This document shows, piece by piece, positions 11,316 to 54,198 of a stretch of 64,000 nucleotides of DNA. This DNA comes from an uncultured Acidobacteriota bacterium (GTDB taxonomy: Bacteria > Acidobacteriota > Thermoanaerobaculia > UBA5066 > Gp7-AA6). Numbering within the stretch: the first letter of the stretch is position 1; each line of letters begins with the position of its first letter. Made by a program: the position numbers and the translations under genes. The notes under the pieces were generated by a model. That model had not been told where the DNA came from. It made no database searches and saw only the letters and a program-made list of their open reading frames with translations. The stretch spans positions 14,573 to 78,572 of the forward strand of contig CAWEMP010000013.1 in assembly GCA_963810205.1 (NCBI GenBank), written 5' to 3'.

Positions 11316-11363
11316 TGTCTTGCGCCTGGGATTCGTCGTTGCTCGGGATCACCGGGTTCGAGC

Positions 11364-11711
11364 TCATGCGTCGGCCTCCTGGTCGTTCCAGAGTCGATGG
11401 ATCGCGACCATCGTTTCGGTGAGCGGCCCCGAGGTCGGTCCGATGATCGTCATCCGGTTCGGCCGAGCGAGGACCCTCAGGGCGCCCTGCAGGACGCCGA
11501 ACGCCTCCGAGCGCAGGTGGGCGTCCAGCGCCGCCGCCGTCTGCCACCCGGTGACCAGGCCGAACGTGGCCGGGACCTCGAGGTCTTCGTAGACGTCTCC
11601 GAACTGGAGGGCGGCGTCCTGTCGGGCCGCGGCCAGCCAGGCGAGAAGCGCCTGGGAGAACTCGCGGCGTTCGGCCGGGCGGGCGACGATGCGGGCAGTG
11701 AGCACGATCAT
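11364..11711 (-). CDS. ABM (antibiotic biosynthesis monooxygenase)-like small protein
   Basis: Start MIVLTARI with AAGGAA RBS. About 115 aa, composition consistent with a ferredoxin-like ABM fold. Confidence 0.45.
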   Translation of the reverse strand: MIVLTARIVARPAERREFSQALLAWLAAARQDAALQFGDVYEDLEVPATFGLVTGWQTAAALDAHLRSEAFGVLQGALRVLARPNRMTIIGPTSGPLTETMVAIHRLWNDQEADA

Positions 11712-39410: not shown

Positions 39411-39995
39411 CTACTGCGGCGGTCGCAGGCTCAGGTCGACCTTCGGCACGGCGCGCTCGGCGGCGTCCTGGATCTCGAAGAGCTCGACCGGCTGGAACTT
39501 GAACGCCTGCGCGATCAGGTTGTCCGGGAAGACCTGCTGCGCGGTGTTGAAGCGCGTCGCGATGTCGTTGTAGAACTGGCGGGCGAAACCGATGCGGTTC
39601 TCGGTCGAGGAGAGCTCCTCCATGAGCGCCTTGACCGACTCGTTGGCCTTCAGGTTCGGGTAGTTTTCCGCCAGGGCGAAGAGGCGCGAGAGCGTCTGCG
39701 TCAGCGCGTTCTCCTTGTCGGCGGCGTCGGCGACGCCCCGGGCGGAGACGGCGGAGTTGCGGGCCTGGATCACCTTCTCGAGGGTGTCCTGCTCGAACTG
39801 CATCTCGCCCTTGACGGCCGAGACGAGGTTCGGGATGAGGTCGTGCCGGCGCTTCAACTGGACGTCGATCTGCTTCCAGCCGTTGGCGACCTGGTTGCGG
39901 AGCGAGACGAGGTTGTTGTAGCGCCAGATCGCCCAGATGGCGCAGAGCACCGCGCCGACGAGCAGGACGACCAGGCAACCTCCGATTGCGGCCAA
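39411..39995 (-). CDS. lemA: LemA family protein
   Basis: N-terminal TM, then a conserved LemA core (NLVSLRNQV...QFYNDIATRFN). Confidence 0.85.
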   Translation of the reverse strand: MAAIGGCLVVLLVGAVLCAIWAIWRYNNLVSLRNQVANGWKQIDVQLKRRHDLIPNLVSAVKGEMQFEQDTLEKVIQARNSAVSARGVADAADKENALTQTLSRLFALAENYPNLKANESVKALMEELSSTENRIGFARQFYNDIATRFNTAQQVFPDNLIAQAFKFQPVELFEIQDAAERAVPKVDLSLRPPQ

Positions 39996-40046: not shown

Positions 40047-41180
40047 TCAGGTGTTCAGGCCCTGGCGGAGCTCCCGCGCCAGGATCTCGACTGCCGAGCG
40101 GGTGCCGCCCGTCAGCTTCTCCTTCCAGACCGTCTCGGTCTCGAACCGCCGGTCACCGATCGCCTCGGCCCAGGGCCGGAGCGCCGCGTCGAGCTCGCCG
40201 GCGGACCAGACGTCGCCGCCGCGCTTCCTGACCATGGCGATGACGTACGGGACGATGCGGATGAAAGCGCGCAGCGACGTCGAGCTCTTGATCGAGTACT
40301 TGCGCCCGGCGAACGCCGCGGGGAAGGCCCGGGCGGCGGCCTTGAAGTAGTTGAGGAAGAAGCGGCGGGCATTCTCGCGAAACTCCCGGGCGACGCGTCC
40401 GCCGGCCGTGTCGATGGCGGCGAAGACGTCGCGCAGCTCGTCGGCGAGCGAGGCCTGCGTGACGGTGCCCTTGCCGATGCCGAGGACCTTGATCGATCCC
40501 CTCAGGGGCGAGCCCTCGTCCTCGTTCAGGGTGCGGATGACGTCGTGGGCGGCGGCCAGGTTGTCGTCGCGGTAGAGGCGGCGGCCGGCGAGCGAGATCA
40601 GGTGCGACGGGTTCAGCTTCGTGTGCTTGCTGTTGATCGTGACGAAGAGCTCGACGACCTGGTCGGCCGTGAGGCTGTCGAAGACGACGGCCGGCACCTG
40701 GAAGTCGCGCAGACTGTGCTTCTCGGCGAGCTGGTGCAGGGCGAGCAGGCGGTGCTGGCCGTCGAGCGCCCGGAGGATCCCGGACTCCTCGGGGAGCTTG
40801 AGCGAGCCGGCGTCGGCCCGGCCCCCCGAAGGCGCGAACTCCAGGCGCTTCTCCGAAACGAGCAGGACGCTGCCCGGGATGGCCGGAAGGGTCCCGGAGT
40901 CGGCGCACTGGAGGTAGTACGCCACGAGCTCGTCGATCTTCCTCTTGATGATCGGCCTCTGGAAGGCATGTTCCGAGGCGGCGATCCGCTTCTCCAGGAA
41001 CTCCCAGTTGACCCGTCCGGGGGCCGCTTTCGACTTGCCGCGGGTCGTTTCGCTGCCGGGGCCGAAGGAAAGCACCTCGAAGCCGACCAGGGACTGCAGG
41101 TCCGCGCCCGAGAGCAAAGCCTCGTAGAACCGCACTCCAAACTGGTTCAGCCGAAGCGAGGGCACCGAGACCATTGTCAC
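40047..41180 (-). CDS. DGQHR-domain protein (ParB-like nuclease superfamily; DndB/DpdB-like)
   Basis: LRALDGQHRLLAL motif and the ...VTINSKHTKL region. 377 aa. Confidence 0.8.
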   Translation of the reverse strand: MTMVSVPSLRLNQFGVRFYEALLSGADLQSLVGFEVLSFGPGSETTRGKSKAAPGRVNWEFLEKRIAASEHAFQRPIIKRKIDELVAYYLQCADSGTLPAIPGSVLLVSEKRLEFAPSGGRADAGSLKLPEESGILRALDGQHRLLALHQLAEKHSLRDFQVPAVVFDSLTADQVVELFVTINSKHTKLNPSHLISLAGRRLYRDDNLAAAHDVIRTLNEDEGSPLRGSIKVLGIGKGTVTQASLADELRDVFAAIDTAGGRVAREFRENARRFFLNYFKAAARAFPAAFAGRKYSIKSSTSLRAFIRIVPYVIAMVRKRGGDVWSAGELDAALRPWAEAIGDRRFETETVWKEKLTGGTRSAVEILARELRQGLNT

Positions 41181-41294
41181 CTCCTGGCCGTCCGGGTCGC
41201 CCGGGGGGTCGGATTCCCGTTCCGGGCGGCGAAAGCGTATACCGCCGTCAGGGGGTTTGGAGCCTAGAGAAATGACTCCCGGGCAGGTGGTCTT

Positions 41295-41639
41295 TCAGGG
41301 CGGCGAGACGGTCTTCCAGTCCTGGCCGGCCACCATCTGGTCGTAGATCGCGCTCGCGCCGGTCAGGATCCCGGTCAGCTCGACGGTCAGGATGGCCGCC
41401 AGGTCGGGGAGGGCCTCCGGCCGGGCCACCGGGACCGAGCACTCGACGGTGGACTGGCCGAGCGAGGCGAAAAAGGGCGAGGGCCGGCGGGTCCAGTCCG
41501 AGTCGCTGCGCCGGTGCTTGGTCATGAGGAAGGCGGCCAGCCGGCGCTCGTCCCAGGGCTCGGACATCGTCCAGGAGAAATTCGCCCGCAGGCCCTTTTG
41601 CTCGATGGACGGGGCTTCGCTCGCCAGGGTAATCGACAT
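41295..41639 (-). CDS. Hypothetical 114-aa protein immediately upstream of the DGQHR gene
   Basis: ORF only; no recognisable motif. Confidence 0.35.
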   Translation of the reverse strand: MSITLASEAPSIEQKGLRANFSWTMSEPWDERRLAAFLMTKHRRSDSDWTRRPSPFFASLGQSTVECSVPVARPEALPDLAAILTVELTGILTGASAIYDQMVAGQDWKTVSPP

Positions 41640-41681: not shown

Positions 41682-42434
41682 GTGAAAAGAGCGCTGCCGC
41701 TGTCTCTTCTGCTGCTCGCCGGCGCCGCCGCCCGCGGCGTGCCCGCCGACGAGAACGTCTATGCCTCGCATCTGATGGTCGACCAGGACGTCGTGGTCTC
41801 GGCGCGCATCACGGGCATCGTCGAGTCGATCGCGGTCGACCGGGGCACCGCGGTCGCGCAGGGCCAGACGCTGGCGACGCTCGACACCCGCGCCCTCGAT
41901 GCCGACGTGCGCGAGGCCAAGGAAGACATGGACCTGAAAAAGGCCGTGTACGACCGGGCGCAGGCCCTGGCGAGCTCGAAGGTGATGAGCGTCCAGGACC
42001 TCGACGAGAAGAAGGCCCAGTACGCCGTCGCGGTCGCCCGCTGGGAGAAGACGAAGACGCAGCGCGACTACGCCGTGATCCGGGCGCCGTTTGCGGGCGT
42101 CGTCACCGAGAAGTACGCCCGGATCGGCCAGAAGGTCGTCGAGGACGGCAGCGAGCCGCTCTTCAAGATCACCGCGACCGAGCCGCTGCTCGCCCGCATC
42201 TACCTGCCGGAGGACCGGCTGCTCCAGGTCCGGGTCGGCGACCGGGTCGAAGTCGTCCCGGAGCGGTTCCCCGACGCGAAGACGACCGGGGAGATCCAGT
42301 TCATCAGTCCCACCGTCGACGCCGCGAGCGGGACCTTCCAGGTCGTCGTGCGCGTCCGGCGCGAACCGGGCAAGACGGTGTTGCGACCCGGGACGGCGGT
42401 CAAGGTGCGCTTCCAGGCGCCCGCGGCGCATTAG
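41682..42434 (+). CDS. HlyD/RND membrane-fusion-protein family periplasmic adaptor
   Basis: Signal peptide, coiled coil, and IRAPFAGVV lipoyl-like motif. Confidence 0.75.
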   Translation: MKRALPLSLLLLAGAAARGVPADENVYASHLMVDQDVVVSARITGIVESIAVDRGTAVAQGQTLATLDTRALDADVREAKEDMDLKKAVYDRAQALASSKVMSVQDLDEKKAQYAVAVARWEKTKTQRDYAVIRAPFAGVVTEKYARIGQKVVEDGSEPLFKITATEPLLARIYLPEDRLLQVRVGDRVEVVPERFPDAKTTGEIQFISPTVDAASGTFQVVVRVRREPGKTVLRPGTAVKVRFQAPAAH

Positions 42435-42465: not shown

Positions 42466-43176
42466 ATGGCGCCGAGACCCTCCCGCTCCACGGCGCGCCT
42501 GCGCTCGGCGCTCGACCGGATGCTGGTCCACGACGTGAAGAACGTGTCGTTCCGGCTGCGGCTCCTCCTCTCGAACATCGACGAGCACTGGGAGGACGCC
42601 GAGTTCCGGAAGACCGTGCGGGAACTGCTGGCGTCGACGGTCGAGCGTCTGGAGGGCCTCGCCGGCCGGTTCGTCGAGCGCCAGGACGCGGTGCTCGTCA
42701 AGATCGAGCTCGACGTCAACGAGCTCCTGCGCAAGGTGGCGGACAAGCCGACCCGCCGCGGCCACCGGTCGACGGGAGCCGGGCCCTCGCTCTCGTTCGC
42801 GCTCGGCGCCGTTCCTCGCATCTGGGGCGACCCCTTCTACCTCGGCGATGCCTTCGGAAGCCTCCTCGAAAACGCCTGGGAGGCGGCGATCCCCGAGGGC
42901 AAGGTCGTTCTCCGGAGCTACACCGGGGGCACGACGCGCCGGCCCCGCGCCGTCGTGGAGTTCATCGACAACGGCGCCGGAATGACGCCCGAGTTCCTCC
43001 GGGACCGCCTCTTCCAGCCCTACGAGACGACCAAGCCCCAGGGCGTGGGCCTGGGGCTCGCGACCGCCGGCCAGATCGTGAAGTTTCACCGGGGCTCGAT
43101 CCGCATCCTCTCGCAGTCGGGCGGGGGGACGCTCATTCGCCTCTCGCTGCCGGGAATTCCGGGAGGACCGGGTTGA
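42466..43176 (+). CDS. Soluble histidine kinase-like protein (H-box LVHDVKN; HATPase_c with DNGAGM, GLGL)
   Basis: C-terminal 236 aa of the 42091..43176 ORF. Confidence 0.65.
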   Translation: MAPRPSRSTARLRSALDRMLVHDVKNVSFRLRLLLSNIDEHWEDAEFRKTVRELLASTVERLEGLAGRFVERQDAVLVKIELDVNELLRKVADKPTRRGHRSTGAGPSLSFALGAVPRIWGDPFYLGDAFGSLLENAWEAAIPEGKVVLRSYTGGTTRRPRAVVEFIDNGAGMTPEFLRDRLFQPYETTKPQGVGLGLATAGQIVKFHRGSIRILSQSGGGTLIRLSLPGIPGGPG

Positions 43177-44558
43177 GCGAGACGGCCGCGCGGCCTTCCG
43201 GGCGGATCGTGATCGTCGAGGACGATGCCGACCTGCTCGAGCAACTGACGTGGGCCCTCAAGGGAAAGTTCGCCGTCTCGGCGGCCCGCGACGCGACGCA
43301 CGGCCGCGTGCTCTGCGAGTCGGAGCCCGATCTCTACCTCTTCGACCTGCGCCTGCCGCCCTCCGGGCAGGTGCAGGAGGGCCTCGATCTGCTGCGCCAC
43401 GTGCGCCAGCGCGATCCGGAGGCGACGGTCGTGATGATGTCGGGCGAGGGCGAGCGGCGATACGCGCTGCAGGCGATTGCGCTCGGCGCCTTCGACTTCT
43501 TCCAGAAGCCGATCGATACGGCCGAGCTCCTGCTGATCCTGAATCGCGCGCTCGAGCGCCGGCGGCTCCTCGCCGAGAACCGGGAGCTGCGGCAGGCCGC
43601 GCAGCCGGCGAGGCCTCTCGACCGCCTCGTGGGCCGCAGCGCCGCCGATGCGTGCCCTGGCGCGGGACATCGAGAGGGTCGCGGGAAGCGACGCCACGGT
43701 GCTCATCTTCGGCGAGAGCGGCACGGGCAAGGACCTCGTCGCGCAGTCGATCCACGCCGCCGGCCCCCGGCGCGACCGGGCGTTCGTGCCGGTCAACGCC
43801 TCGGCGCTTCCGGAATCGCTCGCCGAGGCCGAGCTCTTCGGTCACGAGAAGGGCGCGTTCACCGGCGCGATCGCGTCGCGGCCGGGCCGGTTCGAGCTCG
43901 CCCAGGGCGGCACGCTCTTTCTGGACGAGATCGGCACGCTCTCGCCGGCGGTCCAGTCGAAGCTGCTGCGCGTTCTCGAGAGCCGCGAGGTCGAGCGCGT
44001 CGGCGGCCGGCGGCCGATCCCGGTCGACTTCCGGCTGATCTCGGCGACCAACGAGGACCTCGAGGCGCGCGTCGCCGCGGGCACGTTCCGGGAGGACCTC
44101 TTCTATCGCATTCACACGGTGCCGCTTCGCATCGCGCCGCTGCGCGAGCGGGGCGAGGACATCGCGCTCCTCTCCGAGCACTTTCTCGCGCTCTTCGGGC
44201 AGCGGCACGGGAAGGTCGACCTGCGCCTGTCCGCGGGTGCCCTCGCGCGGCTCCAGGCTCATGCCTGGAAGGGAAACGTGCGCGAGCTGCAGCACGTCAT
44301 CGAGATGCTCGTCCTCTTCTCGCGACGCCCCCGAGATCGGCGAGGAGGAGCTGCCGAGGGCCCTCCGGGAGGGGCCGGCGGCGGTCGGGACGCGCCGCGG
44401 CGCCGGCGAAGGACTTCGCGTCGGCCGTCGAGGAGTTCGAGCGCCGGACGCTCTCGGCGGCGATCGCGGCGGCCGGGGGCGTGAAGGCGGAGGCGGCTCG
44501 ACGGCTCGGGCTCGACGCGAACCAGATCAAGTACCTGTGCCGGAAGTACGGGCTCTAG
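43173..44558 (+). CDS. Sigma-54-dependent response regulator (REC + AAA+ + Fis HTH); two compensating frameshifts
   Basis: The REC domain and HTH lie in the 43173 frame. The AAA+ core (GESGTGKD, GAFTGA) lies in the 43648..44484 frame. Confidence 0.7.
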   Translation: MSETAARPSGRIVIVEDDADLLEQLTWALKGKFAVSAARDATHGRVLCESEPDLYLFDLRLPPSGQVQEGLDLLRHVRQRDPEATVVMMSGEGERRYALQAIALGAFDFFQKPIDTAELLLILNRALERRRLLAENRELRQAAQPARPLDRLVGRSAADACPGAGHREGRGKRRHGAHLRRERHGQGPRRAVDPRRRPPARPGVRAGQRLGASGIARRGRALRSREGRVHRRDRVAAGPVRARPGRHALSGRDRHALAGGPVEAAARSREPRGRARRRPAADPGRLPADLGDQRGPRGARRRGHVPGGPLLSHSHGAASHRAAARAGRGHRAPLRALSRALRAAAREGRPAPVRGCPRAAPGSCLEGKRARAAARHRDARPLLATPPRSARRSCRGPSGRGRRRSGRAAAPAKDFASAVEEFERRTLSAAIAAAGGVKAEAARRLGLDANQIKYLCRKYGL

Positions 44559-44682
44559 TCGGTTGATAAATTCACCCTCCGGTGGGACAAAATTTCAACC
44601 AAACGGGCTTTTGCCGTTTGCGTCTAAATTCGCAAGCCCTTTTGCGACAGTGTTTAGTCGTTTTCTGCTGGGATCCGAATTC

Positions 44683-44699
44683 TGGCCTTCTTCTTGCCT
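44683..44699 (+). promoter_or_regulatory. Candidate sigma-54 (-24/-12) promoter TGGCCttcttcTTGCC
   Basis: GG and GC spaced exactly as in the TGGCAC-N5-TTGC consensus, about 30 nt before ATG 44730. Confidence 0.45.
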
Positions 44700-44729
44700 C
44701 TTCTATTCGGCAACAGAAGGAGGATCAAC

Positions 44730-45160
44730 ATGGGTAATGAAGTCAAGATCAAGCTGACGGACGCTCAGAAATCCAAGATCAAGGAAGCCACGGGCAAGGA
44801 CCTCCCGGAGATCCGCGTCGAGACGTTCGGCTCGAGCCCGGCCTCGATGTCGGCGAGCTCCCCGCTGAAGGCCACCCGCGCCATGCGCGCCGCCAAGTCG
44901 CTGCGTGCCGCGAAGTCGTTGCGCGCCGCGAAGTCGCTGCGTGCCGCGAAGTCGCTGCGTGCCGCGCAAGTCGCTGCGTGCCGCGCAAGTCCCTGCGCGC
45001 CGCGAAGTCCCTGCGCGCCGCGAAGTCGCTGCGTGCCGCGAAGTCCCTGCGCGCCGCGAAGTCCCTGCGTGCCGCGAAATCGCTGCGTGCCGCGAAGTCC
45101 CTGCGCGCGGCCAAGTCGCTGCGTGCCGCCAAGTCCCTGCGCGCCGCGAAGTCCCTCTAG
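44730..45160 (+). CDS. Small protein: 55-aa Lys-rich N-terminal region followed by about 16 tandem KSLRAA hexapeptide repeats; two indels in the repeat array
   Basis: GAAGGAGGA RBS. MGNEVKIKLTDAQKSKIKEATGKDLPEIRVETF... The 44978..45160 ORF reads (KSLRAA)n to the TAG. Confidence 0.55.
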
Positions 45161-46062
45161 GAGTCGTCCCTTCCCCGGGAACGCCCCGCTTCGGCGGGGC
45201 GTTTCTTTTTCACCACCAGACGAGGGTCTGGATCCAGTGGCCGACGACCCGGCCACGTGCGCCAGAGGAACGACTTGCGCCCCAGCCGGATCTTGGCCTG
45301 CCCGCTCATCCCGGGCAGGTCTCGCCCGTCGGCGTTGTCGAACTGCACCACCGCGATGAATCGCTCCGGCGACTCCGACGGCCGCATCGTGGTCTTCGAG
45401 CCGTCGGACGGTCCGGGGACGGTCTCCGCGGCCGCGCCGATGCGCACGATCTTTCCGTGCAGGATCGAGGCCGGCCGCGCCGACAGCTGCAGGGACACGG
45501 GCGAGCCGACCCGAAGATAGGAAAGGAGCCGCTCGCTGACGGGGATCTCGGCCTTGAGCCGGTCCGACCTCGCCGACTTCGGCGATCAGATCTCCGGTCC
45601 TGAGGAAACGTCCCTGGAGGTCCTGGACGCGGGGCGTCAGGAGGCGGCCGTCGATCGGGCTGGCCACCGAGAGCCGGCGGAGGCGGTCCTCGTCCCGTGC
45701 GAGGGCGAGCGCCGAGGCAGCCTCGCGCTGCTCGGCGCGGTACACGCCGGAGGCGTCGCCGGCCTGGCGCTGGCGGCTGGCCTGCTTCAGGAGGCCTTCC
45801 CGCTCGGCCGTCGCGCCCGCGATTCCTCGAGGCGACGGCGGGGCTCGCCATGAGCGCAACGGCTTCTCCGGCTCGCACCGGGTCGCCCTCCCCGGCCTTC
45901 ACGGAGACGACGATCCCGTCTTCCGGAGCCTCGAGCCGCACCGACGTCCACGGCGCGAGGATGGCCGTCGTTTCGAAGCGTCCACGGCGCCCAGGGCACC
46001 GCGACGAGCAGGAGGACGGCGGCTGCGATGGACAGGACGGCGACACGGGCGCGTCGCGACAT
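45157..46062 (-). CDS. HlyD-family secretion protein (copy b); at least 3 frameshifts
   Basis: N-terminal TM MSRRARVAVLSIAAAVLLLV. Fragments SPIDGRLL, LPGMSGQAKIRL in other frames. Confidence 0.45.
45181..45210 (+). terminator. Rho-independent terminator (acgccccgc ttcg gcggggcgt + TTTCTTTTT)
   Basis: Seen in sequence, 20 nt after the TAG. Confidence 0.7.
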
Positions 46063-47424
46063 GAGCAGCTCCTTCTTGTCGAGGTAGACGAGGCGGACGC
46101 CCTGCAGAACCGTGCGGACGCTGCTTGCGAAACAGGCGGAGCAGGGTCAGGGCGAGCAGGACGCCGGCGACGTTGGGAAAGTACTTCGCATAGAAGTTGT
46201 AGAAGAGGTGCGCCGATGAACAGCATGATCACAACGACGAAACCGAGCGCCAGCGGCCCGTAGATCGAGGAAGATCCGGCGCTTGCGGCGCGAGAGCACG
46301 GGGACCTCGACGTTGAGCCGCAGGACGTGCTTCTTGAAGAGGGCGGCGAGGTACTCGAACGAATCCTCGCGCAGCTCCGGGATCTCGAGGACGCTCGCAA
46401 GGGCGTAGTAGCCGTCGATCTTGATCGAAGGGGATTGATGTTGAAGAAGAGCGTCGAGATCCCGGTGAAGAGCATCAGCTTGTACGACAGCTCGTGGAGA
46501 AGCGTGTCCGGGTAGGAGACGACCCAGAGCGCGACCGCGAAGCAGCAGATGATGGCCTCGATGTACATGCCGGCGAGCATGACCCAGAGCCGGTGCCACT
46601 TGCTTCTCGAAGAGAAGGGCGTCGGTCGTGTCGCAGTAGAAGGCCGGCATGAAGTAGAGCAACGCGACGCCGATGTCGTGCACCTCGCCGCCGTAAAACT
46701 TGCACGACGTAGCCGTGCGCGAGCTCGTGGATCAGGCCGATGAAGCAGAGAATGAAGAAGAACTGGACCGCGTCCCAGAAGGGCTTGCGCAGGAACGCGT
46801 AGAGCTCGAGGGTCTGCTCCCAGATGGGCGTCGAAGTGGCTGACGATGACCCCGGTCATCATCGCGATCAGGACGAGCGAGATCGCGACCGTCGGGGGCC
46901 GCCAGATCCAGCGGACGTACTTCTGCGTGCGGTCGAGGAAGCGGTTCGGGTCGAAGACGTGGAACGGGATGAGGAAGATGTCGAACCCCTCGGCCTTTTG
47001 CTCCGCCGTCCGCCGTCGGGCGTCCTTGATCCGGGCGAACTCCTGGAGGTTGCGCTCCGCGGCGGACTGCTCGAGCAGGTCCATGCCGTGCAGCATCTCC
47101 TCGTATTCGGGGACGAGGGAGGTCTCGATGACTTCGTTCGGGAACTGGGCCTGGTAGACGGCGTGGATCTCGGACAGCGTCCGCGTCCCGTCGAAGAGGC
47201 TCGATCAGGCCCCAGGTGCCCTCGTCGAAGCTGTAGTACTTGGTGGTGTCCGGGTTCTTGACGACCCACTGAACCTCGCCCATCTGGACGATGCGGCGCG
47301 CGATGAGGTTCTTCTTGAGCGCCGGCCGGTCTCCGGCCCGGCCGTGCTTCGCCGCGAGCGCGGCGGCGCCCTTCTCGAGGGGCGCCGCGGAGACGAGGGT
47401 CGACGCGCGCGCGACGGCGCTCAC
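46060..47424 (-). CDS. Peptidase M50 (site-2-protease-like) family membrane protein with HELAH motif; at least 2 frameshifts; C-terminal boundary unresolved
   Basis: GTG start overlapping the upstream stop (GTGA). FFILCFIGLIHELAHGYV...FYGGEVHDIGVALLYFMPAFYCDTTDA. Lower-coordinate boundary approximate. Confidence 0.45.
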
Positions 47425-48330
47425 GGGAGGAGCGGCCAGATCTTGTGCCAGAGGTAACGCAGGGGCTTGCGAAAGAGCACCGCGCCGAGCCGGCGCGTCC
47501 CGACGGAGACCTTGCCTTGCCCGAGCATGCCGGACTTCGGAGCGCCTCCGCGGGATTCTCGACGCGGACCTCGGCGATGACGAAGCGCTCTTCGCCCTCC
47601 TCGCGCAGGGCGGCGCCGACGCGCTGCGACCTGGCCTCGGAAGACGCGTGTCGGGAAGGGATTCATCTTGAGCGCCACCGGCTGCCCGGCCTTGAGCAGC
47701 GCCGACGTCGGCCTCGGGGACCGCGACCTCGGCCGTGACGCTGTCGACGTCGGCGACGACCGCACAGCTCGGCGCCCGCGACGAGCGCCTGTCCGACGCG
47801 CTGCTCGATGTGGGGCGTGACGAGGATGCCGGCGATCGGCGCGCGGAGGACGGTCTTCGCGAGCTGTTCCGTCTCGAAGGCGAGTCGTGCCGCGGCCTCG
47901 TCGCGGCGGGAGCGCGCCTCGAACATCGACGCGGCGTCGCCGGCTTCCGTGTGCCGCGCGATGTCGCTCTGGGCGATCCCCAGCGTCGCCCGCGCCTCCG
48001 CCATCGACGCCAGGTAGCTTCTCGTCCTTGAGCATGGCGATCGACGTCGCCGGCGGCGACATGGTCGCCTTCCCGGTGCTTCACTTCGCGGACGATCCCT
48101 TCGACGCCGGCCGTGACGGAGGCCCGGCGCCCGGGCAGCACGCGTGCCGGCCCGTCGACCTTAGGGGCCACGGCAGAACGACGAGGGCGAGGATCGCCGC
48201 CAGCGTTCCGATGAGCCCAGGACTGGCGCCGGCGCTTCGGGATCCCCTGGAGCTTTCGGCGCTTCTCGAGCAGCGGCTCCCAGAAGCCGGCGAGCGGGAC
48301 GTGCTTGTAGAGCTGGGCGTTGCGGACGGC
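47421..48330 (-). CDS. HlyD-family secretion protein (copy a); frameshifted
   Basis: C-terminus ...GMLGQGKVSVGTRRLGAVLFRKPLRYLWHKIWPLLP. Lipoyl-like VTAGVEGIVREVKHREGDHV upstream. Upper-coordinate boundary approximate. Confidence 0.4.
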
Positions 48331-49867
48331 GACGGTCGCCTGGTTGACGAGGATGGAGAGCAGGTCCCGCGTCTCCTCGTCGAAGATCAGGGCCTCCTGG
48401 CTCTCGAACCCGAGCACGCCGAGCTTGCCTTCCTCGTCCTTGAGCAGCACGCCGAAGAAGGAGCGCAACCCCGTTTCCGCGAAGATCGCGCGGAACTTCT
48501 CCTCGGTCTCGGGCCGGTCCGCGGTGATGGCTCCGTCCTCGGTCTGGGTGACGATCGCGTCGCGTCCCCGAGAGGAACACCCACTGGAGGAGGTCGTCCA
48601 TGCGGCGCACGCCGGCGTCCTTGCGGTCGATTTCGGCCGCGCCCGAGACGGCGCCCAGGCGCAGCTTTCCCTTGGCGTGGATGGCGATGGCGCAGCGGTC
48701 GTACGCGACGAGCGCCGCGGTCGCGTTGACGATCGTCTGCATGACCTTGTCGAGGTCCAGCGTCGCGGTGATCTCGCGGCTGACGGCGAGGAGCGCGTCG
48801 AGCTCTTCGACCTTCTTCTCGGCCTCGTGCTGGCGGGCGATACGCAGGGCCCGGACGGCCTGGCGGGCGATGTCGTGCGAGCAGCTCCTCGTCCTCCGCC
48901 GAGAACTCGGGATGCCGGCCGCGCTTGTTCGCGACGACGAGCGCGCCGATCGAAATCTCGTCTTCCACGAGGGGACGCGGCGAGCACGGAGCGGACGGGG
49001 TAGAGCGGGTTTTCCGTGGAGACGGGATCGGACTCGGGGATGCGGTTGCGGCGCATCGGGTTCTGGTCGGCGATGACGTCGCCGACGACCGTGCTGCCGA
49101 CGTGGTCGGGGGGCGATTCGACCTCGTAGTTCTCGTTGATCGCCATGGCCGCGACGGTGACGTCGTCTTCGCCCTCGAGGATCCAGAGGCAGGCCGCCTC
49201 GCCCGTGACGAAGTCCGCGGCCTTGCGAACGATCAGCTCCGACAGCTCGTCCGACGTCGATCGTCGAGCCGAAGGCCTTGGACAGGTCGTAGAGGTTCGT
49301 GAGCCTCTCGATCGCGTGGAGCATGCCGACCGTCTTGCGCTCGGACCGGAGGGCCCGTCCGAGGGCCGGCGCGGCCTGCTCGAGGAAGGCCTCGAGGCGG
49401 GCGAGCGCGACCTCGGCGTCGGGCATCTCGGTGAAGAAGATGGCCAGCAGCCCGACGACCAGTCCCTCGGCCTCGAGCGGCACCGCGATGCACGCCCGAT
49501 AGCCGGGGAGGCCGCGCACGAAGGGGTCGCTGGTGGCGAGCTCTTCGCCGGTCAGCACGATCGGCTGACGGTCGCGAACCAGGTCGCGGATGTAGCCGGA
49601 GTCCCGCGGCGCCGACCGCCTCAGGAACTTCTCGACGCCCTCGCCTTCGGCGCCGATGCAGAGGAAGAGGGGATGGACCGTGTCGGGCGCCCAGAGCAGC
49701 GTCGCGTCCGCGCCCGCCATCGACGCGCTCCAGCGCGCGGCCCAGCCGGAGGTCTGGGCGAGGTTCTCGCAGAGGGCGAGCTCCGCCAGGGCCGAGACCT
49801 GCGCGTCGGCCCGGTCCTTCTCGGTCTCGACCGGCTCGTCGTCCGGTCCCTGGGGTTCGTCCGCCAA
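48330..49867 (-). CDS. Multi-GAF-domain protein (at least 3 GAF-like segments across frames); several frameshifts
   Basis: Start MADEPQG...; GAF-like blocks in three frames. Lower-coordinate boundary approximate. Confidence 0.45.
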
Positions 49868-49904
49868 CGGTCTCCTTCCGGAAACGACAACCGGAGCTCC
49901 GGGA

Positions 49905-50240
49905 TCAGAAGCTCGAGAGGGCGGCCTCCATGTCCTCGTGGATCTCGAAAACCGAATCGAGCTTGGTCATCTGAAGGAGCTTGCGAATCTGGGGGCCGGC
50001 GTTCAGGAGCTTCGTCTGCCCGCCTTCCTTCTGCGAATTGGTCAGCGCCCGCACCAGAGCGCCCAGTCCCGAGCTGTCGAGGAACCCGACCGCCGAGAGG
50101 TCGACCAGCAGGTTCACGCGCCCCTCTTCGAGGAGCCTCGTGACCGTCTTCTTGAAGTTGGTCTCGGCGTCGCCGATGACCAGGTCTCCCGTGACCGTGA
50201 CGATGGTCACGCTTCCGTCGTCTCGCGTCTCCAGATCCAT
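49905..50240 (-). CDS. STAS-domain anti-sigma-factor antagonist (SpoIIAA-like)
   Basis: 111 aa with VDLSAVGFLDSSGLGAL. Confidence 0.75.
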   Translation of the reverse strand: MDLETRDDGSVTIVTVTGDLVIGDAETNFKKTVTRLLEEGRVNLLVDLSAVGFLDSSGLGALVRALTNSQKEGGQTKLLNAGPQIRKLLQMTKLDSVFEIHEDMEAALSSF

Positions 50241-50392
50241 AGAAGTGGGCGGATTATGTCAAACAATCGGATTTGCAAGACCGGGAGCGTGAAACCCGGC
50301 CATGGCGGCGGCATCGAAGGTGCGGGAGTGAAGCTGTGAGCCCTTTTGGCCGGATTCGGACGGGACGGGGAAAGATCCGCCCGGGCCCCGGA

Positions 50393-50640
50393 ATGAGCGC
50401 CGGCGAGCGCCCGTACATCACTACTTCCTCTACCTCTATCTCGAGGGCGAGCTGCCCGAGGACCGCCGCCGCGAGTTCGAGCGCCACCTCGGGGTCTGCG
50501 ATCCGTGCCGGTACATCCGCCAGTACCGCGAGTCGATCGAGCTGGGCCGGGCGGCCTTCCGCGGCGACGACCTTCCGCGGACGAGGCGGCCCCCGAGGAG
50601 CTCGTCCAGGCCATCCTGCGCGCACGGATGAAGGGGTAGG
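50393..50640 (+). CDS. Possible zf-HC2 anti-sigma-factor-like small protein (H-x3-C-x2-C); frameshifted
   Basis: HHYFLYLYLEGELPEDRRREFERHLGVCDPCR in a frame offset from the ATG. Very tentative. Confidence 0.3.
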
Positions 50641-50680
50641 TTGGCCCGTTCCGTACGCGAGCGTGGATAGAATTCGGGCC

Positions 50681-51684
50681 ATGCCGATCGATCGCCGGAC
50701 CCTCCTGTCCCTGGCCGCCGCCTCGCTCGCACACTCCGGGTTCACATCCGCGCGGCCGGGCCCGACGAAGACCTCCGAGGTCAAGACCGCCGGGATCCGC
50801 CTGATCCCGGTCGACGGCAGGTACAAGGTCTGGACGAAGAAGCTCGGCAAGGGCCCCATCCAGATGCTCACGCTTCACGGCGGGCCGGGCGTCACCCACG
50901 AATACTTCGAGTGCTTCGAGGACTTTCTTCCGCAGGCTGGCGTCGAGTTCTACTACTACGACCAGCTCGGCTCCTTCTACTCCGACCAGCCCGACGACCC
51001 GTCCCTCTGGACGATCGACCGTTTTCGCGAGGAGGTCGAGCAGGTGCGCGCGGCACTCGGCCTGGAGAACTTCATACCTCTACGGCCAGTCATGGGGCAG
51101 CATGCTCGCGATCGAGTACGCGCTGAAGTACCAGAAGCACCTGAAGGGCCTGGTGCTCTCGAGCATGACGGCCTCGATCCCGTCCTACATGGCCTACGTC
51201 GCGAAGCTCCGCGCCGCGTTGCCGAAGCCGATGCTCGCCACACTCGAGAAGTACGAAGCCGAGGGCAAGTACGACGCGCCCGAGTACCAGGAAGCGATGT
51301 ACGAGGGCGTCTACAAGCGCCACGTCTGCCGTCTCGACCCGTGGCCGGATCCCGTGGCGCGCGCCTTCAAGCACATCAACAACCAGGTCTACGGAACGAT
51401 GCAGGGACCCAACGAATTCGTCGTGACCGGGACCTTCAAGGACTGGGACCGCTGGAACGACCTCGCGAAGATCAAGGTTCCCGACGCTCGTCGTCGGCGC
51501 GACGTACGACGAGATGAACCCGGACGACATTCGCCGGATGGGGACGCTCTTGCCGCGCTCCCGGGTCGCGATCTGCGAGAACGGCAGCCATCTGGCCATG
51601 TGGGACGACCAGGAAGCCTACTTCCGGCATCTCGTGGCTTTCCTGCAGGACGTCCAGGCCGGCCGGTTCCCGTCCCGGGCTTAA
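50681..51684 (+). CDS. Proline iminopeptidase-like alpha/beta hydrolase (S33) with Tat signal; 2 frameshifts
   Basis: MPIDRRTLLSLAAAS..., LTLHGGPGV, GQSWG nucleophile elbow. C-terminus in a third frame. Confidence 0.7.
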
Positions 51685-52008
51685 CCATTTCTTGAGAATC
51701 GCGGGGCTGGGGCGCACGAAACCTCTGCCGACCGGGTGCATCGAAGCGTCGTGAGATCCGACTCCGGGGGTACCCGCGTACTCCGCGGGAGACCGGGGGG
51801 GCCCCGGCTCCCATTCCGGGTGCGGGGCGAGGGCGCCGGAGACCCGGGGGATGTGCCGGGCGCGCTTTCCGGCGATAGAATTTGCGGCTCGAGTCGCTCG
51901 AGTCGCTCGAGCGACGCGATCCGGAAAAACGAGGGTATCTCGCGGTAGCCATGTCGGCTGCAGCGGTGGTGGGTGGAACCCCGAAACGGGGAGCGAAAGG
52001 AGACAGGG

Positions 52009-52428
52009 ATGAAGAAGGGCGATCTGACGGTGAAGGCGATCGGTCTCGCGGTGGCCGGTGTTCTCGCGGGCTCGCAGCTGCTCTCGGCTCTGCCGAAGAA
52101 CGAGTCGAAGGCCGGCGGCAAGAACGGCAACGCGAGCCAGGACGCCAAGGACAAGACGGCCGCTTCCTCCGACAAGCACGTCTGCAAGGGCATGAACTCG
52201 TGCAAGGGGAAGGGCGGTTGTAAGAGCGGCGACGCCGGCTGCGCGGGCAAGAACTCCTGCAAGGGCAAGGGCGGCTGCGCTTCGGCCGACATGAAGCACT
52301 CCTGCAAGGGCATGAACGCGTGCAAGGGCCAGGGCGGCTGCAAGAGCGGCGAGAACGGCTGCGCCGGCAAGAACTCCTGCAAGGGCAAGGGCGGCTGCGC
52401 GGTTCCGGTCGCGAAGAAGGCGGCCTAG
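52009..52428 (+). CDS. Cys-rich RiPP precursor candidate: Sec signal peptide plus two near-identical 6-Cys modules (12 Cys), bufferin/BUF_6/12Cys-like
   Basis: AAAGGAGACAGGG RBS. MKKGDLTVKAIGLAVAGVLAGSQLLSALP. Modules HVCKGMNSCKGKGGCKSGDAGCAGKNSCKGKGGCA and HSCKGMNACKGQGGCKSGENGCAGKNSCKGKGGCA. Confidence 0.7.
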   Translation: MKKGDLTVKAIGLAVAGVLAGSQLLSALPKNESKAGGKNGNASQDAKDKTAASSDKHVCKGMNSCKGKGGCKSGDAGCAGKNSCKGKGGCASADMKHSCKGMNACKGQGGCKSGENGCAGKNSCKGKGGCAVPVAKKAA

Positions 52429-52445
52429 TTTCATCGTCAGAAGAC

Positions 52446-52478
52446 GGGGGGACGCGGCCAGACCGCGCCCCCCGTTTT
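52446..52478 (+). terminator. GC-rich hairpin plus short U-tract between precursor and MNIO gene (putative attenuator/partial terminator)
   Basis: ggggggacgcgg ccagac cgcgcccccc gtttt. Confidence 0.4.
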
Positions 52479-52502
52479 GATTTCCCGAGACCCGAAGACA
52501 CC

Positions 52503-53363
52503 TTGAGACCCGAGAACCGAAACCGCTGGAGCTTCCCCGACCTCGGCGTCGGCGTGGGCCTGCGCACGGTCCACTACGCGCACATCCTCGAGCAGAAGCC
52601 CGAGGTCGATTTCTTCGAGGTTCTGTCGGAGAACTACCTCGACACGGGCGGCCGGCCCGCCTGGGTGCTCGACCAGGTCGCCGAACGGTACCCCGTCGTT
52701 CTGCACGGCGTTTCGATGTCGATCGGCTCGACCGATCCGCTCGACCGCGCCTACCTCTCGAAACTGAAAGCCCTCGCCGCCCGCACCCGCGCCCTCTGGG
52801 TTTCGGACCATCTGTGCTGGACCGGCGTTTCCGGACGGAATACCCACGACCTGCTCCCGATGCCGCTGACCGAGGAGGCGCTCGCGCACGTCGTCGCCCG
52901 CGTGAAGATCGTGTCGGACATCCTCGAGCGGCCGCTGATCCTCGAGAACGCCTCGACGTACGCGGAGTTCGCCGCGTCGAGCATGACGGAGTGGGAGTTC
53001 TTCGGCCGGCTGATGGAGGAGGCGGACTGCGGGATGCTCCTCGACGTCAACAACGTCTACGTCAGCGCCTTCAACCACGGATTCGACCCGAAGGCCTACC
53101 TCGACGCGATCGATCCGTCGCGCGTGGCGCAGTACCACCTCGCGGGCCACACGAACAAGGGAACGCACATCCTCGACACGCACAGCGACCACGCCATCCC
53201 GGAGGTCTGGGAGCTCTACCGCCGCTCGGTCGCGCGCACGGGCAACGTGGCCACGCTGTTCGAGTGGGACGGCGACATCCCGGCCTTCGAGGTGGTGCAC
53301 GCCGAAGCCCTGAAGGCCCGGAAGTTCCGGGACGAGGAGAACAAGGTTGCCGCGGCCTCTTGA
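52503..53363 (+). CDS. DUF692/UPF0276 enzyme = multinuclear non-haem iron oxidase (MNIO; MbnB/BufB-like)
   Basis: GVGLR...DFFEVLSENY...HGVSMSIGS...SDHLCW...LENASTY...LLDVNNVYVSAFNHG...YHLAGH...LFEWD. TTG start is inferred. Confidence 0.8.
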   Translation: MRPENRNRWSFPDLGVGVGLRTVHYAHILEQKPEVDFFEVLSENYLDTGGRPAWVLDQVAERYPVVLHGVSMSIGSTDPLDRAYLSKLKALAARTRALWVSDHLCWTGVSGRNTHDLLPMPLTEEALAHVVARVKIVSDILERPLILENASTYAEFAASSMTEWEFFGRLMEEADCGMLLDVNNVYVSAFNHGFDPKAYLDAIDPSRVAQYHLAGHTNKGTHILDTHSDHAIPEVWELYRRSVARTGNVATLFEWDGDIPAFEVVHAEALKARKFRDEENKVAAAS

Positions 53364-54198
53364 GCTGCCGCTTCCGCGCCTCCAGCGCTGGATGCAGGCG
53401 GTCATCGAGCAGCCCGGAACGGCGGAGGAAGCCGTCGCGGCCGAGGCGGCGCGGGCCGAGCTCGATCCCGCGTCGATCGCCGGCGTGATCCTCCCGTCGA
53501 AGACACTGTCGCCGGTCGAGCGAATCGGCGTCTACCAGGGCATGTACCTGCTGCGGATGGTCGAGGCGCTCGAAAACGATTTCCCGGCCGTCGCGCACTT
53601 CCTCGGGGCCGAGCGCTTCGCGGAGCTCGTCACGCGATACGTCGCGGCTCATCCGTCGAGGAGCTACACGTTCAACCGCCTGGGCGACAGTTTCCCCGGG
53701 TTCATTAGGACGTCGTACAGGGTCCGCCGGAAGGCCTTCGTCGCCGAGCTCGCGCGCCTCGAGAGTCTGGTGACCGAGGTGTTCGACGCGCCGCCGTCGC
53801 CAGCCTGGCCCGCCGAGGAGATCGCGGAGATCCCGGAAGCGGCCTGGCCGGGCGCCGTGCTCGTGCCGTCGGCGGCCCTGCGGGTCGGGTCGTTCGCCTA
53901 CCCGGTCAACGCCTACCTGCAGTCGGTCAAGGACGAGAACCACGACCATCCGGCGACCGGCCGGCAACCCACGTGGATCGCGGTTTATCGGAAGAACTAC
54001 GAGGTCTGGCGGCTCGATCTCTCGAAGCCGGCCCACGACTTCCTCGCCGCCCTCGTGAAGGGCCGGCCGTTCGGCAAGGCCGTCGTCGCGGCCACACGCG
54101 GGCTCCAGGGCGCGCCTGGCGAGCCGCTCTTCCGCTGGCTGCGCGACTGGGTGGCCGAGGGCTTCTTCCAGAGCGTCGTCCTCCCGACTCCTCGCTGA
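53347..54198 (+). CDS. DUF2063 protein (MbnC/BufC-like MNIO partner)
   Basis: Overlaps the MNIO gene by 17 nt. N-terminal LQRWMQAVI motif region. 283 aa. Confidence 0.75.
   Translation: MPRPLELPLPRLQRWMQAVIEQPGTAEEAVAAEAARAELDPASIAGVILPSKTLSPVERIGVYQGMYLLRMVEALENDFPAVAHFLGAERFAELVTRYVAAHPSRSYTFNRLGDSFPGFIRTSYRVRRKAFVAELARLESLVTEVFDAPPSPAWPAEEIAEIPEAAWPGAVLVPSAALRVGSFAYPVNAYLQSVKDENHDHPATGRQPTWIAVYRKNYEVWRLDLSKPAHDFLAALVKGRPFGKAVVAATRGLQGAPGEPLFRWLRDWVAEGFFQSVVLPTPR

Follow-up and report, generated by a model that had tools for sequence, protein, structure and literature searches.

What might an M50 peptidase and two HlyD-type periplasmic adaptors do in an operon that runs up against a gene for a repeat protein? 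The question is raised by a 64,000-nucleotide stretch of DNA from an uncultured Acidobacteriota bacterium (contig CAWEMP010000013.1 of assembly GCA_963810205.1; the whole stretch is hereafter called the window), where a minus-strand operon that also encodes STAS and GAF domains converges on a small gene whose product ends in tandem copies of the hexapeptide KSLRAA. A model that had only the letters and the open reading frames (ORFs) before it (the sequence-only reading) had thought of an undescribed secretion or processing system for the adjacent repeat protein. Our comparative analysis lends weight to that idea through the conserved linkage of the genes, a domain in the protease that resembles a RiPP recognition element (RRE), and the likeness of that protease to the leader peptidases of RiPPs (peptides synthesized on the ribosome and modified after translation). 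With a probability of roughly 0.6, we consider that the cassette matures by leader-guided proteolysis, and exports, the small protein whose gene converges on it. Since the test of neighbourhood conservation could have failed and did not, we regard the interpretation as supported.

Results

Layout of the minus-strand operon

Between 45.2 and 50.2 kb the minus strand encodes, in this order, a STAS domain, three GAF domains, an HlyD-type adaptor, an M50 peptidase with the motif HELAH and a second HlyD-type adaptor, as identified with Pfam and NCBIfam in proteins stitched together across frame breaks. The sequence-only reading had this order of domains right and counted five genes; a near-identical contig (L001; loci and proteins are designated by L and P numbers) and about 30 other loci have three, with the GAF×3 region and the first adaptor joined in one protein of 811-820 aa and the peptidase and the second adaptor in another of 731-733 aa. 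Mapping L001 onto the window gave the gene coordinates collected in Table 1 and places the 3' end of the operon at 45210 instead of the earlier 45157, the ORF at 45157..45498 being a frameshift artefact. The GTGA stop/start overlap described before is indeed there, at 47421-47424 (…CTC CCG TGA / GTG AGC…), and these four shared nucleotides suggest that the GAF×3-HlyD and M50-HlyD genes are translationally coupled. Other parts of the earlier description also held: the operon opens with a STAS protein of the anti-sigma-factor-antagonist type followed by a large GAF protein, both recognised by Pfam and NCBIfam, and it converges with the KSLRAA-repeat gene, with a terminator-like hairpin and T-run between the two stop codons. 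Its extent had been drawn too small, as the peptide gene itself and its σ54 promoter lie outside, together with the genes of a small HlyD protein, a kinase and a σ54 activator.

Conservation of the neighbourhood

A scan of one genome per species (GTDB) gave 34 loci, mostly from Thermoanaerobaculia or other Acidobacteriota. In the close subfamily (25 loci) the order STAS, GAF×3-HlyD, M50-HlyD is constant wherever the contig reaches, the STAS gene coming first in all Thermoanaerobaculia loci that extend that far, and all 23 Thermoanaerobaculia loci (of 23) whose sequence extends far enough have, directly downstream, a convergent small gene bearing a conserved leader. At L033 the contig ends at the expected spot inside an array of fifteen 15-nt repeats, where only the repeat tail is seen. 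The comparison of gene neighbourhoods in related genomes, which the sequence-only reading had proposed as a check, thus shows a conserved neighbourhood in this class, and the linkage extends to Gemmatimonadota and Bacteroidota.

Farther away the arrangement changes. Three Pyrinomonadaceae loci carry the leader peptide in a rearranged gene order, and both there and in Gemmatimonadota the small adaptor gene sits between GAF-HlyD and M50-HlyD. The leader profile retrieved 111 proteins, including Gemmatimonadota peptides of 45-55 aa whose N-terminus is homologous (…R-I-E-L-T-D-E-Q-K-x-K-I-R-E-A-T-G-K-D…), whose E-L-E-E-R-I-A-P motif is invariant and whose tail, 5-10 aa long and without repeats, is variable; a profile of this short form retrieved at least 3,708 clusters at 90% identity, all labelled ‘hypothetical’ or mislabelled. 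All four reverse look-ups in Gemmatimonadota that started from short leader peptides led to an adjoining set of GAF×2-HlyD, small HlyD and M50-HlyD genes, accompanied by regulators of other kinds (a Crp-type protein with a cyclase, BTAD-AAA regulators, or Ser/Thr kinases). In one locus from Bacteroidota, four small genes in tandem, with a short leader ending in EELEERIAP, stand directly upstream of M50-HlyD, and a Gemmatimonadaceae locus has one small gene of the EELEERIAP type upstream of GAF-HlyD. What is conserved as the core, then, is the peptide and the three adaptor paralogues, one with the protease and one with the GAF domains.

A hidden Markov model (HMM) of the leader, based on 26 loci, gave no convincing match in L029 and L031-L036; the peptides there came to light only in a scan for small ORFs preceded by ribosome-binding sites. 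Some of the short peptides bear the JGI label ‘DUF1192 family’, which we set aside as probably a spurious match to the shared string LSVEELEERIA. At 7952-8128 of L040 there is a peptide (P0174) that has a similar N-terminal motif and a double-glycine motif (…LDKVVGG) and adjoins an ATP-binding cassette (ABC) transporter with a C39 peptidase, an AprE-type adaptor, an outer-membrane factor and a cyclic-nucleotide-binding protein. It was rejected as a member of the family, since its real double-glycine motif and the neighbouring peptidase-containing ABC transporter (PCAT) point to a different system; the leader module VKIKLTDxQ…ATGK may nevertheless be shared between two different export systems.

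The leader and its tandem-repeat tail

Once corrected, the peptide of the window reads MGNEVKIKLTDAQKSKIKEATGKDLPEIRVETFGSSPASMSASSPLKATRAMRAA followed by 14.5 copies of KSLRAA, which is the organisation of the intact orthologue in L001 (142 aa); in the window its frame is broken by two extra C bases, which make 19-nt units at 44949 and 44968. We saw neither a signal peptide nor a transmembrane (TM) segment in it, and Pfam and NCBIfam assigned it to no family, giving only spurious low-complexity or below-cut-off matches. The conserved leader of about 45 aa, M-x-N-E-V-[KR]-I-K-L-T-D-x-Q-K-A-K-I-K-E-A-T-G-…-E-I-R-V-…-G-x-[NS]-P, has homologues in 29 loci. What follows it is invariably a tandem repeat whose unit is specific to the lineage and 3 to 22 residues long: KSLRAA, KSMRAA, KAMRAQ, KAMKAQ, KAMKAH, KAT, GAPRA, PRVAA, AQDLT/AQDLS, RKPTAKVAL, an 18-mer, 22-mers and DRANPSAALA, to which the metagenome peptide P0154 adds SVKSP. 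The net charge of the tails ranges from +34 to -21, most lying between +11 and +34 and the AQDLT/S arrays at about -20.

The units of any one gene agree wholly or almost wholly in protein and differ at synonymous sites: L019 has 58 synonymous and 7 amino-acid differences, L020 has 38 and 7, and L001 has 30 and 10, most of the amino-acid differences sitting in the junction outside the repeats. That the units differ mostly at synonymous sites indicates that the repeats are translated and that the unit sequence is under purifying selection. The junction motif has no clear copy in units of the KSLRAA type. A conserved leader followed by a variable core is the organisation of a RiPP precursor, and no modification enzyme besides the protease is conserved across the cassette loci. 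The stop codons of peptide and protease genes are separated by a gap of 49 nt that contains a G+C-rich hairpin and a T-run; because the T-run is on the plus strand only, the element is convincing as an intrinsic terminator of the peptide gene and less so as one of the operon.

A peptidase fused to an adaptor

Searches with the stitched protease returned 574 homologues, fused in the same way and about 731-733 aa long, of which P0001 is the best (96% identical); NCBI names them ‘HlyD family efflux transporter periplasmic adaptor subunit’. The window protein has HELAH and NINPL(R/I)K(V/I)DG, and across 59 homologues H232, E233, H236, N329, P330, D335 and G336 are invariant, so that the HExxH in a TM helix and the downstream NxxPxxxxDG of the M50 family are both present. 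Its score with PF02163 is 25.9 bits, those of P0001 and P0059 being 28.0 and 29.1 (gathering score 27.2), values that show a divergent branch of M50 scoring close to the threshold. The top HMM match is the daptide metalloprotease NF041824, at 169.9 bits (E 9e-50) against a cut-off of 300 and covering the N-terminal domain too, and YydH/LiaK (NF058609) follows at 49.3 bits (E 5e-13), far under its cut-off of 225. By profile comparison, then, the leader peptidases of RiPPs are the closest to the M50 part. The protein belongs to neither of these families: the scores are below the cut-offs, no daptide enzymes adjoin the cassettes of L001, L002, L042 and L037, and the cassette has no radical-SAM gene.

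The sequence-only reading had identified the M50 peptidase correctly and had passed over an N-terminal PqqD/RRE-like domain in the same protein. This domain of about 80 aa lies upstream of the first membrane helix (about residues 40-115), and PF05402 (gathering score 23.4) matches residues ~50-100 above threshold in P0059 (29.9 bits) and P0056 (24.9) and stays slightly below it in P0045 (22.9). An AlphaFold2 model (mean predicted local distance difference test score, pLDDT, 76) places strands at 41-47, 50-57 and 62-67 and helices at 68-74, 83-93 and 103-113, with a pLDDT of ~70-85 in the domain; the predicted three-stranded sheet with three helices is winged-helix-like, as in an RRE. RiPP recognition elements, whose role is to bind leader peptides, fold in this way, as three strands followed by three helices.

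Seven hydrophobic segments were counted between the RRE-like domain and the adaptor and, because they separate the two, the domain is probably cytoplasmic and the adaptor periplasmic, in our own reading of the sequence and the model. The C-terminal 260 residues match MacA, MexA and AcrA in Foldseek, including the alpha-hairpin (E ~1e-12 to 1e-13); with the whole model against the PDB only adaptors stand among the 50 matches listed, which speaks neither for nor against the RRE or M50 parts. HlyD_3 and HlyD_D23 are above cut-off in both large proteins of the operon and RND_mfp in the small adaptor, and the lipoyl, alpha-hairpin and beta-barrel elements of the adaptor family follow a TM anchor on its periplasmic side. 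With a profile built on the protease protein, 4,448 clusters at 50% identity were reached at E<=1e-30, some of them probably by virtue of only the HlyD or the M50 region; most of the best 150 matches listed are full length, from the RRE-like domain on.

L035 encodes a distant RRE-M50-HlyD relative of 825 aa that has a long coiled-coil hairpin and is followed, at 10920-11419, by a 250-nt tandem duplication, each copy of which has a good ribosome-binding site and a 10-codon ORF (MSNPSAILWL). These ORFs are possibly mini-precursor genes of another subfamily.

Regulatory genes and promoter

The NtrC-family activator gene, which ends 125 nt 5' of a σ54 promoter, is followed 172 nt downstream, in the same direction, by the peptide gene. 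A promoter of the TGGC-N7-TTGC type is found 40-80 nt 5' of the peptide start in 27 of 27 loci, with two deviating by one base, and the motif has two matches in the whole 64-kb window on both strands (128 kb searched). The other match (39884-39898, plus strand) is probably due to chance, as it falls inside a LemA-like gene region. When the upstream regions of the 27 loci were anchored on the promoter and compared for enhancer sites, paired TTGA...TCA(A/T)C elements were seen by eye to recur at equal distance in most Thermoanaerobaculia loci. Promoter and upstream pair have the layout of an enhancer-dependent promoter; motif, distance, upstream sites and adjacent activator gene all agree with a σ54 promoter, which the activator next to it presumably drives.

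The small adaptor, kinase and activator genes form a trio that runs in the direction of the peptide gene; it is found in all Thermoanaerobaculia loci with sequence that reaches the region. The L042 kinase orthologue scores 145.9 bits with the PrsK model TIGR02916 (cut-off 300), over its C-terminal 200 residues only, and the activator orthologue, with Response_reg, Sigma54_activat and HTH_8 domains, scores 436.3 bits with TIGR02915 (cut-off 502.6). By these profile scores the two proteins are relatives, and not members, of PrsK/PrsR of the PEP-CTERM systems, and the kinase lacks the membrane and GAF part of PrsK. The orthologue of the small adaptor in the same locus has 148.5 bits with NCBIfam RND_mfp (cut-off 94.9); R-x3-L-x6-S/T occupies the same position in small adaptors of Thermoanaerobaculia and Gemmatimonadota, a sequence that we take, as a lead only, to be the hairpin-tip motif by which adaptors dock on TolC-type channels. 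Elsewhere in the window, 13422-14480 encodes a second σ54 activator of the NtrC family, a paralogue that is ~40-58% identical, over different segments, to that at 43173-44558.

At the other end of the cassette, the STAS protein scores 70.1 bits with PF01740 and 73.6 bits with TIGR00377 (cut-off 53.45), and the motif around the phosphorylatable serine, DS[ST]G[LI]G, is FLDSSGLG in the window and is kept in 26 of 29 homologous STAS ORFs. Of the partners that a partner-switching regulator, the type envisaged in the sequence-only reading, would need, neither an anti-sigma kinase nor a PP2C phosphatase is present among the genes of the conserved cassette, to which the inspection was confined. GAF-2 carries NKRGRHPEFSAEDE, which corresponds to NK-X6-F-X3-DE and thereby to the NK-Xn-F-X3-DE signature of GAF domains of the cyclic-nucleotide-binding type; the motif occurs in 24 of the 30 loci checked and, being a sequence signature, does not by itself prove that GAF-2 binds a cyclic nucleotide.

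Table 1. Features of the cassette and their positions in the window
Feature	Position	Strand	Description
Small HlyD-type periplasmic adaptor	41682..42434	+	~250 aa, N-terminal signal/anchor; hairpin-tip R-x3-L-x6-S (RAQALASSKVMS)
Soluble histidine-kinase core (DHp + HATPase), PrsK-like	42466..43176	+	Located by tblastn synteny; no membrane or sensor domain
NtrC-family σ54-dependent response regulator, PrsR-like	43173..44558	+	From ORF translation; frameshifted in the window
Two enhancer-like sites, GTTGA-N5/6-TCAAC	44562..44599	+	GTTGATAAATTCAC and GTGGGACAAAATTTCAAC; ~100 nt 5' of the σ54 promoter
σ54 (-24/-12) promoter	44683..44697	+	TGGCCTTCTTCTTGC; 33 nt before the peptide ATG
Candidate substrate/precursor peptide	44730..45160	+	142 aa corrected; leader MGNEVKIKLTDAQKSKIKEATGKDLPEIRVETFGSSPA..., junction, 14.5 x KSLRAA
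Hairpin followed by TCTTTTT	45180..45210		AACGCCCCGC-TTCG-GCGGGGCGTT; between the two convergent stop codons
M50-HlyD gene	45210..47424	-	733 aa in L001; PqqD/RRE-like domain, 7-TM M50, periplasmic adaptor; ~17 indels in the window
GAF×3-TM-HlyD gene	47421..49867	-	811 aa in L001; three cytoplasmic GAF domains, one TM segment, periplasmic adaptor; ~12 indels
STAS gene	49905..50240	-	111 aa, intact; anti-sigma-factor-antagonist type, motif FLDSSGLG

Frame breaks in the window

The window has a G+C content of ~68%, and across 44.3-49.3 kb the coding frame, followed by third-position G+C, switches every 100-400 nt, which is why ORF lists give overlapping fragments there. We read the three minus-strand frames side by side and stitched them by eye, and the resulting protease checked against P0001 at 96% identity. 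L001, the 6.9-kb contig that encodes P0001, aligns over its full length to 43874-50771 with 96.7% identity and 43 indels, and its genes are intact (111, 811, 733 and 142 aa). About 30 single-base insertions in the window relative to L001, from 49254 to 44321, account for the frame breaks; nearly all indels in this interval are 1-nt insertions, outside homopolymers and often creating strings that contain CG or GATC. The activator gene, with indels at 44321 and 44382, and the peptide gene are broken as well, and frames break elsewhere in the window too.

Such a density of lesions, some 30 frame-breaking indels within 5 kb, would also be expected if the operon of this organism were a set of decaying pseudogenes with genuine frameshifts, an explanation that we hold to be highly improbable. 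The amino-acid sequence between the indels is ~96% conserved with respect to the best homologue, every ORF is intact in the near-identical contig, and both the uniformity of the events and their spread into neighbouring genes are those of an unpolished long-read assembly; for these reasons assembly error is favoured over decay, and the frameshifts, as far as alignment can tell, are probably errors of the assembly. The same contig contradicts the possibility, envisaged in the sequence-only reading, that the fragments are unrelated pseudogenes. Other long stretches of the window keep a single frame, for example 11.7-14.5 kb and 53.3-56.5 kb, so that the error rate seems to be uneven along it. 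Beside the STAS gene, at 50379-50639, an 88-aa ORF of L001 for a zf-HC2 protein (anti-sigma type) is disrupted in the window by deletions of 15, 7, 5, 5, 4 and 3 nt, which differ in kind from the single-base insertions found elsewhere; as this ORF is not conserved in other loci, it was rejected as a part of the cassette.

Discussion

We read the cassette as a form of leader-dependent peptide processing and export by way of an M50 protease and HlyD-type adaptors, with an architecture of which we found no description and an unusual, hypervariable tandem-repeat substrate. In the sequence of events that we propose, the soluble kinase and the σ54 activator, whose genes directly precede the motif-bearing promoter, would turn on the peptide gene. 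The soluble leader could then be bound in the cytoplasm by the PqqD/RRE-like domain, with which it strictly co-occurs, and the seven-TM M50 domain may cut near the G-x-(N/S)-P junction and possibly between repeat units too. An Asn-Pro helix breaker is also needed by the site-2 protease of SREBP. The tail would leave by a periplasmic conduit assembled from the three HlyD/MacA-type adaptor paralogues, namely the one fused to the protease, the one fused to the GAF sensor and the small free adaptor, whose domains and tip motif are suited to such a role, and exit could take place through an unlinked outer-membrane channel of the TolC type. The cytoplasmic GAF×3 and STAS proteins might gate the process in response to a small ligand or to phosphorylation. 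The product would be the species-specific repeat peptide or its units, probably acting as an extracellular signal or as a polycationic or antagonistic peptide. A protease that acts as an exporter has a precedent, since the M50 protease EpeP is thought both to cleave and to export its epipeptide (PMC10885120).

Several observations weigh against such a system. No ABC, RND or MFS transporter or outer-membrane factor is encoded within ±10 kb in L002 and L042, nor a pump or outer-membrane factor in the flanks fetched for L037, L043, L044 and L045 (7-8 kb requested), and the conserved cassette itself contains neither, so that an energy source and an exit duct must be missing or unlinked. The RRE-like domain falls below threshold with PF05402 in the closest clean orthologues (13.5 bits in P0018, no match in P0001), and the best PDB hits of its profile, PqqD structures 3g2b and 5sxy, are weak (E 0.23). 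Because the tails share neither sequence nor sign of charge, no common activity can be proposed for them, and the peptide, with no conserved modifying enzyme in its vicinity, is strictly speaking not a RiPP. All related loci derive from metagenome-assembled genomes; the genes are broken in this window, whose copy would be dead if the insertions were real; and no step has been tested experimentally in any literature that we found. Nor did we find there a description of the cassette, of the leader or of the ELEERIAP motif, many subscription papers being beyond the reach of the search.

M50 enzymes such as RseP and SpoIVFB are classical signalling proteases, and site-2 proteases act in this way on anti-sigma factors. 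It could therefore be argued that the small protein is a cytoplasmic regulator, for example of the σ54 activator or the kinase, which the protease destroys upon a signal from the adaptor, GAF and STAS parts, and a cassette so rich in regulators (STAS, three GAF domains, a kinase without sensor, a σ54 activator) and devoid of a transporter or outer-membrane factor would suit this role. We think it quite unlikely, as the peptide has no membrane segment, unlike the known substrates of site-2 proteases, and only its leader is conserved, while the larger part varies between species in unit, period and charge. Moreover, the regulators differ between phyla while peptide and three adaptors persist together, and three MacA/MexA-like adaptors, one with an R-L-S tip motif, suggest a conduit. 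Still less credible, and indeed very improbable, is that the adaptors serve an unlinked metal or drug efflux pump and that the repeat gene is an unrelated neighbour kept by inherited gene order. NCBI does name the homologues efflux adaptors, RND_mfp is the best adaptor HMM, and the close loci all belong to one class, in which shared ancestry alone could explain the synteny; yet the association persists across phyla with altered order and orientation, drug efflux has no use for an adaptor that is fused to a RiPP-type protease and an RRE-like domain, and the promoter is kept although the intergenic DNA has diverged.

A third alternative retains the export machine and differs in the product: the protease would cut every repeat, releasing many short peptides (hexapeptides in the window) as a diffusible, species-specific signal that feeds back through the two-component system. 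Purifying selection on unit identity would follow naturally, and there are signs of multiple cores. The short relatives have a variable C-terminus of 5-10 aa after the invariant ELEERIAP, P0383 and P0402 contain two modules of ELE(E/D)RIAP plus core, and the Pyrinomonadaceae unit SARLEDRANP includes L-E-D-R-x-x-P, comparable to LEDRIAP. The location of the peptide gene beside a two-component system, with an inducible promoter, also recalls by analogy ComC/ComDE and NisA/NisRK. Against it, three-residue units such as KAT are improbable as signals, the kinase is soluble and has no extracellular sensor, and there is no evidence of cleavage sites; for a dedicated signal of this kind the likelihood seems to us distinctly low. 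As the signs of multiple cores are offset by units as short as KAT and by the lack of the junction motif in KSLRAA-type units, one long tail and many unit peptides are both kept as possible products of the export system that we favour. A bolder extension, unlikely in our estimate, would see here a new class of diderm envelope-spanning peptide secretion machine, built from three adaptor paralogues (an RRE-guided M50 fusion and a GAF fusion among them) without an ABC, RND or MFS motor, together with Acidobacteriota polyprotein precursors that are cut into identical unmodified peptides and serve, outside the cell and under σ54 control, as fast-diversifying, lineage-specific signals or antagonists; these would be the bacterial counterpart of alpha-factor and neuropeptide precursors.

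Comparison with known systems places the proposed maturation and export system between several of them. Like the M50 proteases of RiPP pathways (that of daptides, NF041824; YydH/EpeP/LiaK, NF058609; TglG/TmoG of pearlins), the enzyme is multi-pass, has HExxH and NxxPxxxxDG, and adjoins in the genome a small precursor whose leader is conserved; unlike them, it is fused to a periplasmic adaptor, occurs in a diderm bacterium and is accompanied in the conserved cassette neither by a radical-SAM epimerase or daptide tailoring enzymes nor by PEARL/DUF692 proteins. With the double-glycine exporters (PCAT, HlyD-type adaptor and TolC, as in ComAB and CvaAB-TolC) it would share a leader-dependent protease coupled to envelope-spanning export with an adaptor, and an adjacent substrate gene, often beside a two-component system. 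In place of their ABC transporter, C39 cysteine protease and double-glycine motif, however, there are a zinc M50 enzyme and three adaptor paralogues, and we regard the PCAT and M50-HlyD systems as distinct because the partly leader-similar double-glycine peptide P0174 adjoins a PCAT system of its own. The adaptors have the lipoyl, alpha-hairpin and beta-barrel elements of those of tripartite pumps (MacA, MexA, AcrA, EmrA), and the small paralogue their R-x3-L-x6-S tip, but two are fused to a protease or to GAF×3 and no cognate inner-membrane pump is encoded alongside.

In Firmicutes, M50 proteases of the Eep/RseP type yield short, linear, unmodified signals from small precursors, as the present enzyme may do; Eep, however, takes precursors that resemble signal peptides or are inserted in the membrane and relies on separate ABC export, whereas here we find an RRE-like domain and a soluble leader. 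One leader followed by many identical short units is also the plan of multi-core precursors such as those of cyanobactins, fungal ustiloxin-type peptides and yeast alpha-factor, in which, by contrast, the cleavage sites on either side are defined and the proteases or modifying enzymes are known. Finally, the STAS protein has the DSSGLG motif of the antagonists SpoIIAA and RsbV and scores above cut-off with their model TIGR00377, although it is co-operonic with membrane machinery and not with a sigma factor.

If the proposed system is real, thousands of small ‘hypothetical’ peptides would gain a defined route of maturation and export, and the large unannotated M50-HlyD family would gain its function as that route. 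The hosts are soil Acidobacteriota, Gemmatimonadota and Bacteroidota, phyla for which, to our knowledge, almost no peptide signalling or bacteriocin biology is known. It would also mean that peptides can cross the Gram-negative envelope without a recognisable transporter, and the tails, identical in protein within a gene and lineage-specific in unit, would represent an unusual repeat-encoded diversity of bacterial peptides. The conserved leader and the RRE-like domain offer a handle for genome mining and for heterologous production.

Neighbouring genes

Beyond the STAS end of the cassette, the plus strand at 51973-54186 holds a separate RiPP-like cluster, consisting of a signal-peptide protein with repeated CKGxNxCKGKGGC motifs (two modules in the window, one in L042), then a gene of the DUF692/MbnB_TglH_ChrH family (~52488-53348) and one of the DUF2063/HvfC_N family (~53383-54186). 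The cluster resembles systems of the bufferin/MNIO type and adjoins the cassette in the closer relatives only. Its DUF692 and DUF2063 proteins were considered as tailoring enzymes of the repeat peptide and rejected, since they have a Cys-rich precursor of their own and are absent from more distant loci.

On the other side, divergent from the small HlyD gene, the minus strand at 41295-41639 encodes a conserved hypothetical protein of 114 aa that has no Pfam or NCBIfam match and is syntenic in L002, L007, L020, L042 and, apparently, L003. Next to it, at 40050-41186 on the same strand, lies a DndB-domain gene that is unusually conserved for its neighbourhood, with 95% protein identity to its counterparts in L002 and L007 against 65-85% for the neighbouring genes.

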